Shown piece by piece: positions 31,092-32,689 of a DNA stretch of 64,000 nt. This DNA comes from a virus. The notes under the pieces are model-generated. The model saw only the letters and a program-made list of their open reading frames with translations. It was not told the origin of the DNA and did no database searches. The position numbers and the translations under genes were made by a program. The first letter of the stretch is position 1. Every line of letters begins with the position of its first letter. The stretch spans positions 32,001-96,000 of the IMG/VR virus record IMGVR_UViG_3300028394_000044; one strand, given 5' to 3'.

Positions 31092-31508
31092 ATGATTGAT
31101 ACAAATGATATTTTTCGTGGTGTAGGAGTTGAAATTCTACTGAATGAACAAGATGATTTCCTTAAAGTCCGAGAGACCCTAACTAGAATTGGTGTCTCCT
31201 CTAGCAAAGAAAAAATTCTATACCAATCTTGCCACATCTTACACAAGCAAGCTAGATACACAATATTACATTTTAAAGAATTGTTTGAGTTGGACGGAAA
31301 ACCATCCAATATTTCTGATAATGACATTGAAAGACGGAATGCAATTGCTAAACTTCTTGAAGAATGGGGTTTAGTGAAGATAATTAAACCAGAACTCATA
31401 GGTGAAAAAATAGCACCTATGCACCAGATTAAGATTATTTCATATCGTGAAAAAGATGGATGGCAGTTGGTAAGCAAATACAATATTGGAAAGAAACCTC
31501 AGGAATGA
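31092..31508 (+). CDS. regA: Translational repressor RegA
   Basis: 'DDFLKVRETLTRIGV', 'LYQSCHILHKQ', 'HFKELF.LDG', 'KYNIG'. Confidence 0.97.
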   Translation: MIDTNDIFRGVGVEILLNEQDDFLKVRETLTRIGVSSSKEKILYQSCHILHKQARYTILHFKELFELDGKPSNISDNDIERRNAIAKLLEEWGLVKIIKPELIGEKIAPMHQIKIISYREKDGWQLVSKYNIGKKPQE

Positions 31509-31514
31509 TATATT

Positions 31515-31700
31515 ATGAAAAAATTGAAAGAGAAAGTGACCAGACTAAAGAACATTTACACTGGTGAAATCGTTATAACTAGTAACTTGTTTGAGAAAAG
31601 AGTTGATAGTACCATGACATTCATTCAGGTATATACCGAGACCAATCCGCAAAGAAAATTCTTTGTTAACGGCGCGGCTTTTGTTCCGGCGACTAAATAA
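31515..31700 (+). CDS. Small hypothetical protein
   Basis: 61-aa ORF directly after regA. Confidence 0.55.
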   Translation: MKKLKEKVTRLKNIYTGEIVITSNLFEKRVDSTMTFIQVYTETNPQRKFFVNGAAFVPATK

Positions 31701-31704
31701 TAGT

Positions 31705-31882
31705 ATCTCGGGGATGGGAACATGGCGATAGTAACCATGTAAATAACTATCACTAATTTAAGAACCCACCTTAGGGCTGTTTGATGCTACGGTAAAAGGC
31801 GTCCGGGCAATTGCACTGTCACCCGTTAGTTGTCCCTGTATTAAGTAAGCAGGACCCAGCTACGCTTTCGGGGTAGCTTTTT
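31705..31882 (+). ncRNA. Candidate structured RNA (multi-pseudoknot) or 5' leader of hsp20
   Basis: GC-enriched intergenic tract after an ACTAAATA late-promoter-like box; two or three H-type pseudoknots, then a UUCG-capped hairpin with a U tract. Confidence 0.65.
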
Positions 31883-31906
31883 AACTTGCTTTTAAAGGAG
31901 AAATTT

Positions 31907-32395
31907 ATGACTAATCTAGGTCGTATTAATTTTGGACCATTGAGTCCAAGTACCGTTGGCTTTGAACGTTTTTTTGATGCGTTTGACCAACTCACCGCGG
32001 ATAAAATTCCGACAAACACTTTTCCACCACATAACATTGTCAAAATTGATGACTATAATTACCAGATAGAACTGGCAGTTGCAGGCTTCAAGATTAGTGA
32101 TATTGATATTGAGGTTTTAAAGGGTGAATTGACAATTTCGGGTAAAAGAACTGAATTAAGTGATAAGTATACTTATTTGCATCGTGGCATTGGTGCTCGA
32201 TCATTTAAGAAGATTGTAAGACTCTCAGATTCTGTAAAAGTTGATGGAGCGACTTTGGAAGACGGAATTCTGACGGTCAAGCTACATAACATCATTCCAG
32301 AAGAAAATCAGCCAAAACGCATTCCAATCGTTTCCAGCGGTAATACTCAAGTATTCAATTCTGAATCCGGCAATAAAAAACTATTGCAAGAATAA
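31907..32395 (+). CDS. hsp20: Small heat-shock protein (Hsp20/IbpA family)
   Basis: 'VGFERFF', 'FPPHNIV', 'ELAVAGF', 'YLHRGI..RSF', 'A.LEDGIL'; AAGGAG RBS. Confidence 0.95.
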   Translation: MTNLGRINFGPLSPSTVGFERFFDAFDQLTADKIPTNTFPPHNIVKIDDYNYQIELAVAGFKISDIDIEVLKGELTISGKRTELSDKYTYLHRGIGARSFKKIVRLSDSVKVDGATLEDGILTVKLHNIIPEENQPKRIPIVSSGNTQVFNSESGNKKLLQE

Positions 32396-32398
32396 TTG

Positions 32399-32427
32399 TT
32401 GACTTTTCTACCTTTCCGTGTTATAAT
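32399..32427 (+). promoter_or_regulatory. Sigma70-type promoter
   Basis: TTGACT-17bp-TATAAT with a TGn extension. Confidence 0.8.
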
Positions 32428-32446: not shown

Positions 32447-32689
32447 ATGAACAATGCTTTTTTGAGAAAATTGGCGTCCGATGACTTGCGTGAGACTTTG
32501 ATGTTTTGTGGATTGGTGGATTCTCCAAACTGTAAAACAAAATCAGTTGACAGTAAAGGGAAAACACGATACGTTTTCAATACATATATTGGTGATATTA
32601 TCGTTTATGGACATAATTCAATCTATATAAAGGGTAAGAGATTCCCCTCCATGAATCAAGTGAAATATGAATTGATTAAATATTTATGA
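32447..32689 (+). CDS. Hypothetical protein
   Basis: Follows a promoter and an AAGG RBS; coupled to the next gene. Confidence 0.6.
   Translation: MNNAFLRKLASDDLRETLMFCGLVDSPNCKTKSVDSKGKTRYVFNTYIGDIIVYGHNSIYIKGKRFPSMNQVKYELIKYL

Follow-up and report, generated by a model that had tools for sequence, protein, structure and literature searches.

Organisation of the locus

The window, i.e. the whole stretch of 64,000 nt that was analysed, comprises bases 32001-96000 of IMGVR_UViG_3300028394_000044, a complete virus record of 162 kb with terminal repeats. The genes around its hsp20, which codes for a small heat-shock protein (sHsp), are T4-like, with the clamp-loader genes being followed by regA, a 61-aa open reading frame (ORF) and then hsp20. 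The subject of this analysis is the spacer of 206 nt that separates the 61-aa ORF from hsp20, which holds a structured RNA with three predicted pseudoknots (PK1 to PK3) and several hairpins, the last of which would cover the Shine-Dalgarno (SD) sequence (Table 1).

Table 1. Coordinates of the leader RNA and its flanking genes in the window; S1 and S2 are the two crossing helices of a pseudoknot.
Feature	Position	Strand	Details
regA, T4-type translational repressor	31092..31508	+	Pfam PF01818, E 7.4e-43; usual upstream landmark
61-aa ORF, no known family	31515..31700	+	Kept in some relatives, missing from others
Late-promoter-like box ACTAAATA	31692..31699	+	6/8 match to T4 TATAAATA; overlaps stop codon of 61-aa ORF
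Invariant 5' strand GGGGATGGGA	31710..31719	+	Possible partner CCCACC(TT) 31765-72, conserved A.C mismatch
PK1, H-type pseudoknot	31720..31751	+	S1 31720-25/31735-40; S2 31727-32/31746-51; A-rich linker AAATA
Hairpin H1	31765..31776	+	CCC/GGG, invariant loop ACCTTA; first part of invariant core
PK2, H-type pseudoknot	31777..31803	+	S1 CTGT 31777-80/ACGG 31789-92; S2 GATGCT 31783-88/GGCGTC 31798-803
PK3	31804..31834	+	S1 CGG 31804-06/CCG 31823-25; S2 GTCA 31818-21/TGTC 31831-34
Mini-hairpin inside PK3	31807..31814	+	GC-AATT-GC
Hairpin Hf	31835..31853	+	CCTGT/GCAGG, conserved loop ATTAAGTAA
Hairpin I, terminator-like	31858..31882	+	Stem 31858-63/31873-78, bulged G31864, UUCG loop, T run 31878-82
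ROSE-like hairpin over SD	31885..31900	+	CTTGCT 31885-90 with AGGAG 31896-900, G31888 putatively bulged
hsp20 ATG	31907	+	
hsp20, 162 aa, alpha-crystallin family	31907..32395	+	Pfam PF00011, E 9.9e-16; PHROG 432 Hsp20, E 2.6e-34

H1, PK2, PK3 and Hf together form a nearly invariant core of ~90 nt. Because the helices of this core abut, without linkers between H1 and PK2, PK2 and PK3, or PK3 and Hf, a compact stacked fold is suggested. In the window, loop L1 of PK2 is TT and its L3 is TAAAA, and the upper part of hairpin I is formed by the pairs C31865-G31872 and U31866.G31871. PK3 S2 contains a U.U mismatch (31819/31833) in this copy and in its 99% twin (L001), at a position where nearly all other copies pair. 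All pairings that were listed in a preliminary description of this DNA are present in the sequence, i.e. those of PK1 and PK2, CGGG 31804-07 with CCCG 31822-25, CCTG 31835-38 with CAGG 31850-53, and AGCTAC with GTAGCT (31858-78).

Taken by itself, the sequence reveals little of this. The nested minimum-free-energy fold is unexceptional (z-score of -0.40 on the + strand and +0.47 on the - strand), with a model of nested folds being blind to pseudoknots. A covariance-model search of Rfam 15, which the preliminary description had proposed, gave no match at gathering score in the whole window, nor any at E up to 10 in 31400-32100, apart from one chance hit to a long non-coding RNA. The likeness to the manA, wcaG and abiF motifs that had been suggested was therefore not borne out, as neither these nor any other Rfam family matched. 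A scan of the window also found no tRNA or transfer-messenger RNA. Since both single-sequence thermodynamics and Rfam give nothing, the case for an RNA rests on its relatives.

Covariation and fold of the core

For the comparison of relatives, 60 and then 96 distinct copies were aligned with a covariance model of the nested helices only, and pairs were counted for the full pseudoknotted structure. With 96 sequences, 98.5% of the cells form standard pairs and both sides have changed at 15 of the 28 pairs, values that none of 500 shuffled controls reached. Sliding the partners by 1-3 columns lowers pairing to 29-44%, and the 60-sequence alignment agrees with the larger one. Alignment and a test of covariation, as had been proposed along with the preliminary description, thus came out in favour of its central claim, namely that an RNA of serial pseudoknots, here found to be of the H type and on the + strand, lies ahead of hsp20.

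PK3 S1 and the mini-hairpin covary even though they were left out of the alignment model, with five pair types at alignment pair 49-69 and three at pair 51-57, respectively, and because both helices lie outside the model, their covariation cannot have been favoured by the alignment. PK3 S2 shows two-sided change at all five of its pairs. An independent prediction by RNAalifold, made from a plain MAFFT alignment, comprises H1, PK2 S2 and PK3 S1. The changes in H1 are a replacement of C-G by U-A in one sequence and by U.G in another. Hf has changed on both sides at four of its five pairs around an invariant loop motif (A..A.GTAA), so that the CCTG/CAGG stem noted in the preliminary description is among those that covary heavily.

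PK2 had been drawn as GCTGT (31776-80) with ACGGT (31789-93), crossed by GATGCT with GGCGTC, and it holds up with 99% pairing and mostly wobble-step changes. Over 95 sequences, S1 is paired in 99.5% and S2 in 99.3% of cases, and the changes are from U.G to C-G (30 and 21 times), from C-G to U.G (18 times), from U.G to U-A (4 times) and from C-G to U-A (once). Such wobble-type changes are consistent with pairing, but they are weaker than full compensation. Inserted hairpins are carried in L3 of PK2 by three copies (L213, L214 and L239). The third element was only partly right as first drawn: it is an H-type pseudoknot on CGG/CCG, but the crossing helix is 31818-21/31831-34 and not CAATTG/TAGTTG. 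The latter pairing and the 9-bp hairpin that had been offered as an alternative are 78% paired, with many broken cells.

Several positions are predominantly U.G among the 96 sequences, and since these pairs would be C.A mismatches on the other strand, the fold can only exist on the + strand, which is the hsp20 strand. Altogether, the comparison of sequences confirms a conserved folded RNA on the + strand, with three predicted pseudoknots, ahead of the phage hsp20. Within it, ~45 consecutive bases of the core, including loops and linkers, hardly vary, and the neighbouring stems covary freely. A loop-loop kiss between ACCTTA of H1 and TAAGGT of Hf was also considered; it is perfect in about a third of the copies and 83% paired, shows no covariation, and is only a possible contact.

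The 5' module and the putative promoter

The module upstream of the core is optional, being absent from about half of the copies. Where it occurs, GATGGGA is invariant and PK1, for which ACATGG/CCATGT crossed by GATAGT/ACTATC had been proposed, keeps the same H-type architecture in all 34 distinct 5' modules despite many different S1 and S2 sequences (a mean of 11.7 bp versus 5.6 in shuffles). The helix that could close this module, GGGGATGGG (31710-18) with CCCACCTT (31765-72), is invariant on both strands, with its A.C mismatch kept, and therefore gives no covariation signal. In about half of the copies its 5' strand is missing, but CCCACC is retained and is able to form H1 instead.

The late-promoter-like box that had been noted upstream is indeed there. 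TATAAATA is the T4 late promoter; among 115 distinct copies, 92 have a TAAATA box 6-13 nt 5' of the first structured base, 49 have a perfect TATAAATA box, and the ACTAAATA of the window recurs in 9. From this we infer that a late-type promoter would be used at the box, read on the + strand. About a fifth of the copies have no box nearby, with the core located within a few bases of the regA stop, in the regA-hsp20 spacer. A leader peptide starting from the ATG inside GGGATGGGA was rejected, as its frames and lengths vary between copies when compared by eye.

Five loci (L082, L124, L135, L137 and L151) have a sigma-70-like site (TTGACA-17-TATAAT) ~60-100 nt 5' of the core, with the late box TATAAATA within its spacer. 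The same five carry an extra CCCATC segment that is able to pair with GGGATGGG, and in this subgroup the pairing may represent an alternative 5' hairpin.

Hairpin I and the hairpin over the ribosome-binding site

Downstream of the core, the AGCTAC-UUCG-GTAGCT hairpin with its U tract, as first described, is a recurrent feature: the architecture of hairpin I (two upper pairs, a bulged G and 5-6 lower pairs) is found in 67 of 68 distinct copies. The bulge caused a consensus terminator scan to miss it. Termination at hairpin I is plausible but probably not its sole role, since a T run of at least 4 follows in 46 of the 68 copies only, the other 22 being without a proper U run.

Beyond hairpin I, 57 of 58 motif-bearing hsp20 leaders, and likewise all 12 leaders of a small ORF that can precede hsp20 (see below), contain T[TC]GCT followed 2-9 nt on by (A)GGA, the full pattern before the first gene being (A)ACT(T/C)GCT, a few A/T bases and AGGAG. 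Pairing of U(U/C)GCU with the SD sequence defines the ROSE-like thermometers of bacterial small heat-shock genes (PMC3669281), and that the last hairpin is a ROSE-like thermometer is therefore well supported by analogy, as it has the sequence by which these are defined. In the two-hairpin ROSE form of Pseudomonas, hairpin II alone is enough for thermoregulation (PMC3669281). The predicted stability of the phage SD hairpin is marginal, at about 0 to -2.8 kcal/mol at 37 °C and -3 to -6.5 kcal/mol at 10 °C. ViennaRNA returns the bulged-G hairpin for two relatives (L012 and L008) and, for the window, only weak alternative folds of 3-4 bp, with non-canonical pairs lying outside its model. The thermosensor that had been suggested in the preliminary description was thus right in spirit, being a hairpin of the ROSE type U(U/C)GCU/AGGA, but it had been placed elsewhere, and the hairpin at 31885-31900 had not been described. 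Among the searchable papers, none was found to describe a ROSE-type hairpin over the SD sequence of a phage sHsp gene.

Relatives that lack the core (L005, L007 and L008-L013) keep both the UUCG hairpin and the SD hairpin, and L017 has a related hairpin with another loop. In L008 and L012, GGGATGGGA and PK1 are joined straight to hairpin I, and the modules occur in all combinations, i.e. none (L005), PK1 only (L008 and L012), core only, or both. Since the 3' hairpins are kept where the core is missing, the leader consists of separable modules, with the core being an accessory between the promoter-like box and the putative thermometer.

Distribution and linkage to hsp20

A scan of IMG/VR based on RegA gave 75 loci, of which only five have a homologous spacer, the core being missing at the other 70. 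Alignment of the five spacers showed an invariant block between variable stems and insertions, and the RegA proteins of loci that share this block are only 67-83% identical. Two DNA patterns were derived, one from each half of the block, and either of them matched at least 119 IMG/VR contigs. With the first, the whole element is present in 111 of the 119 matches listed, the other 8 being chance matches in coding DNA; the second, anchored in H1, added at least 55 loci with variation where the first pattern was fixed. The element thus occurs in more than 160 IMG/VR contigs, many of them from uncultured T4-like phages, and it is present as a single copy in the phage's own genome.

Outside this set, the element was not found. 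Queries of 900 nt and 191 nt had no BLASTN match in 50,697 GenBank phage records, and the two core patterns gave 0 and 5 matches in 185,579 bacterial and archaeal genomes (one per species), with the 5 being due to chance, as they resemble the core in the search pattern alone. The literature searched contains no earlier description of the element. An automated survey predicted ~8,500 unnamed structured-RNA candidates from IMG/VR (PMC10690425), among which the element may be present without a name; the text of that survey, as distinct from its tables, does not mention hsp20.

Among the 99 distinct copies whose downstream sequence is long enough, 92 have hsp20 as either the next gene or the one after it (the search for it gave nine misses, two of which were regex failures). 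The upstream neighbours, on the other hand, are of at least 10 different kinds, including regA, the 61-aa ORF, other small ORFs, and IscA-like, ferritin/Dps-like and glycosyltransferase-like genes, the ferritin/Dps-like gene being followed by a small ORF of 76 aa. Insertions are always located 5' of the leader and never between leader and operon, and no promoter-bearing gene was inserted between the leader and the hsp20 operon in any of the copies compared. Insertions being confined to the upstream side and the linkage to hsp20 being strict, a cis-acting leader is favoured over a neighbouring RNA gene. A RegA operator was discarded, as the element stays with hsp20 and not with regA.

When hsp20 comes second, it is preceded by a small ORF of 67-98 aa without a known family. 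This is the case in 14 distinct copies (e.g. L134:4500-4718, L153:711-911, L101:2665-2877 and L095:5988-6281), in which the small ORF takes the ROSE-like ribosome-binding site; its conserved N-terminus is of the type xYANMAIDxIQ, and it has no significant Pfam or PHROG match. Between regA and the leader, IscU/IscA-like genes or a ferritin/Dps-like gene (PF00210) are found in L143, L170, L216 and L153, and at L165:2976-3416, the IscA reading resting on a C-terminal CGCGSSF motif seen by eye. As judged from their sequences, these inserts would place several stress-related genes together beside the hsp20 leader.

The core is also found in front of other genes. In L164 (4724-5554) and L226 (1020-1862), hsp20 is replaced by a gene for a DUF4422 protein of 277-281 aa (PF14393, E 8.6e-12 for L164), of which the leader is also without a ROSE-like hairpin. 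In L169 (G002:C1:8797-8903), the core has an unknown gene of 148 aa on one side and a short basic ORF on the other. In all three, the core adjoins the ribosome-binding site of the non-hsp20 gene, with no hairpin I in between. The core of L169 is complete, carrying a compensatory C-G swap within PK3, and its presence in a small phage without hsp20 indicates that the core is a movable module. A further locus on a contig of 250 kb (G001, L259:1505-1545) has H1 and PK2 only, after the stop of a 212-aa gene and ahead of an unrelated hairpin and a sigma-70-like promoter, and may represent a remnant or minimal form.

Comparison with known systems

The 3' part of the leader resembles ROSE-like thermometers of the ibpA and hspA type, in particular the two-hairpin form of Pseudomonas (PMC3669281), in that it is located in an sHsp gene's 5' untranslated region (UTR), has a stable hairpin just upstream (hairpin I), and ends in a 3'-proximal hairpin of marginal stability in which U(U/C)GCU would pair imperfectly with the SD sequence. 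It differs in that it is found in a phage, behind a box like that of T4-type late promoters, its SD hairpin is only 4-6 bp and matches no ROSE model of Rfam, and a large invariant pseudoknot domain is added upstream, which is absent from the ROSE elements described.

The core, in turn, is reminiscent, in style only, of the riboswitch aptamers that are built on H-type pseudoknots, such as preQ1, SAM-II, fluoride and guanidine-III. Like these, it consists of short H-type pseudoknots with first loops of 1-2 nt and A-rich third loops, it combines covarying helices with invariant loop and junction bases beside them while tolerating loop insertions of variable length, and it lies in a 5' UTR, with a terminator-like hairpin and one over the SD sequence following it. 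A conserved aptamer of the riboswitch type, in the sense of covarying helices and invariant junction bases, is thus a feature present in the core. However, the core matches no riboswitch in Rfam, and it has a series of two pseudoknots, to which a third may be added.

The T4 gene 32 mRNA also has a leader pseudoknot, for autoregulation by gp32, which is mentioned in the survey cited above (PMC10690425). The two are alike in their position at the 5' end of a T4-type phage leader and in being thought to act in cis on downstream translation, but the T4 leader concerns another gene, has a single pseudoknot and a known protein partner, and shows no sequence likeness. The preliminary description had also pointed to type III antitoxins (ToxI-like), which are likewise small pseudoknotted RNAs found in phages or mimicked by them. 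Those occur as tandem direct repeats of ~34-36 nt beside a toxin gene, whereas the present element is single-copy: Tandem Repeats Finder returned nothing in 31500-32000, PADLOC gave no hits, and the neighbours are regA, the 61-aa ORF and hsp20, without a toxin endoribonuclease or any defence or toxin family among the neighbouring proteins. This likeness was therefore abandoned.

Function of the leader

Our preferred reading, to which we give about an even chance of being correct, is that the region is a cis-acting, composite 5' leader of the phage hsp20 operon, in which a new pseudoknot domain is combined with a ROSE-like thermometer. The leader would be transcribed on the + strand from the late-type promoter, and its last hairpin would free the ribosome-binding site on warming, as in the bacterial ibpA and hspA leaders. 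The invariant core would act in cis as a sensor or docking domain for a conserved partner, which could be a small molecule, an ion, some conserved machine of the host, or the sHsp itself with its conserved alpha-crystallin body, for which E. coli IbpA, an sHsp that acts on its own 5' UTR, provides a precedent (PMC10474464). In doing so, the core might tune either the passage of the transcript through hairpin I, or the translation or retention of the mRNA. That the core is an RNA for specific binding is suggested by its stems covarying while its loops and linkers are fixed and insertions occur only at certain loops, and its partner seems to be better conserved than the phage Hsp20 proteins, which vary considerably. 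As a hypothesis, the leader may also serve as a riboswitch attenuator. On this reading, it belongs to a structured cis-regulatory kind that is already known, with the combination of thermometer and pseudoknot domain being new. A bolder version, which we regard as possible but doubtful, is that the ~90-nt double-pseudoknot core represents a new class of ligand- or machine-binding RNA (an orphan riboswitch, or an RNA with the ribosome or RNA polymerase of the host as its docking site) that gates the chaperone operon and is movable between genes and phage types.

A number of observations weigh against the composite leader. The 26-kb virus that carries L169 is 92% complete and has no hsp20, which means that the core can persist without it. 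In L098, L162 and L206 an intact core is followed by sigma-70-like promoters, and in L257 an ORF other than hsp20 comes next, its start being ~350 nt away from the core. Conversely, some relatives manage hsp20 with hairpin I and the ROSE-like hairpin alone, so the core is dispensable, and much of the linkage to hsp20 could be inherited synteny in one phage clade. The ROSE covariance models of Rfam have no match in 31400-32100 at E up to 10. Nor is there an evident riboswitch platform of the classical type, as no conserved pairing was found by which the core and either hairpin I or the SD hairpin would exclude each other; in the 60-96 aligned copies inspected, the core offers hairpin I and the anti-SD strand no partner that covaries, only weak options of 4 bp. 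Finally, the start and end of the transcript, as well as any read-through of hairpin I, are deduced from sequence.

Part of this evidence would suit a stand-alone, late small RNA of ~175 nt, running from ~31706 to the U run at 31882 and acting in trans, for instance as a decoy or sponge that captures a host factor or a defence factor, with the adjacency to hsp20 being merely inherited. Such an RNA would have its own promoter-like box and a terminator-like hairpin (followed by the T run in 46 of 68 copies), it could account for the intact covarying cores before sigma-70-like promoters and for the one in the 26-kb virus, and an invariant sequence suits recognition by a conserved partner. It is nevertheless unlikely, because the distance from the U run to the ATG is too short for a separate hsp20 promoter, so that hsp20 has to be read through the leader. 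Moreover, 22 of the 68 copies are without a proper U run, L164, L226 and L169 have no terminator and a core that abuts the ribosome-binding site, insertions occur only upstream of the leader, and the element is single-copy, without tandem repeats or a defence-related neighbour having been found. Alternatively, the pseudoknots could be a passive 5' structure without any partner that shields the late hsp20 mRNA from decay at its 5' end or aids folding of the thermometer. The modules are optional and freely gained or lost, they are located within a few bases of the presumed transcript start, and the upstream hairpins of ROSE elements have been described as part of a complex secondary structure (PMC3669281). 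A stabiliser needs shape rather than sequence, however, and yet ~45 consecutive bases hardly vary; in addition, ~20% of the copies have no promoter box nearby, with the core in the regA-hsp20 spacer. This makes a passive role rather unlikely.

Two further possibilities concern the nature of the partner. With an autoregulatory operator, which we consider improbable, the core would be bound by the phage sHsp, or by the small protein made from the same transcript, which would keep its own mRNA repressed as long as unfolded proteins have not titrated it away, in the manner of E. coli IbpA on its ROSE-like leader. The tight linkage of the core to hsp20 is in line with this, and the phage Hsp20 has a G-I-G-A-R-S-F stretch at what we take to be the position of IbpA Arg93, which is a lead rather than a test, the arginine of this stretch being common to many sHsps. 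In E. coli, IbpA represses its own translation via the 5' UTR, for which Arg93 is needed (PMC10474464). The Hsp20 proteins behind the core are diverse, however, both in their N-terminal regions and in being of PPYN and PPHN types, and the core is likewise found in front of a DUF4422 gene and in one virus that has no hsp20. Very improbable, in our view, is a processive antiterminator, in which the nascent core would bind RNA polymerase and cause read-through of hairpin I and later terminators. The put RNAs of phage HK022 are processive antiterminators that bind the transcribing RNA polymerase in this way, and the order of promoter, structured RNA, terminator-like hairpin and gene would fit, as would an invariant sequence facing a conserved polymerase surface. 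Against this, relatives without the core keep hairpin I and must still express hsp20, and there is no similarity in sequence or model to the antiterminator RNAs in Rfam.

Whichever partner is involved, the core is an abundant RNA that is backed by covariation and has no family in Rfam 15, and its profile, being typical of specific binders, makes it a candidate for an orphan riboswitch or an RNA-protein element. If the SD hairpin of the composite leader works as it does in bacteria, these T4-like phages would gate their chaperone by temperature. The series of module combinations (none, PK1 only, core only, or both) provides a natural deletion series.

Downstream of hsp20

Directly 3' of the hsp20 stop, the window contains a strong promoter-like site of the sigma-70 type (TTGACT, 17 nt, TATAAT, with an extended TG) at 32399-32427, which precedes an 80-aa ORF at 32447.

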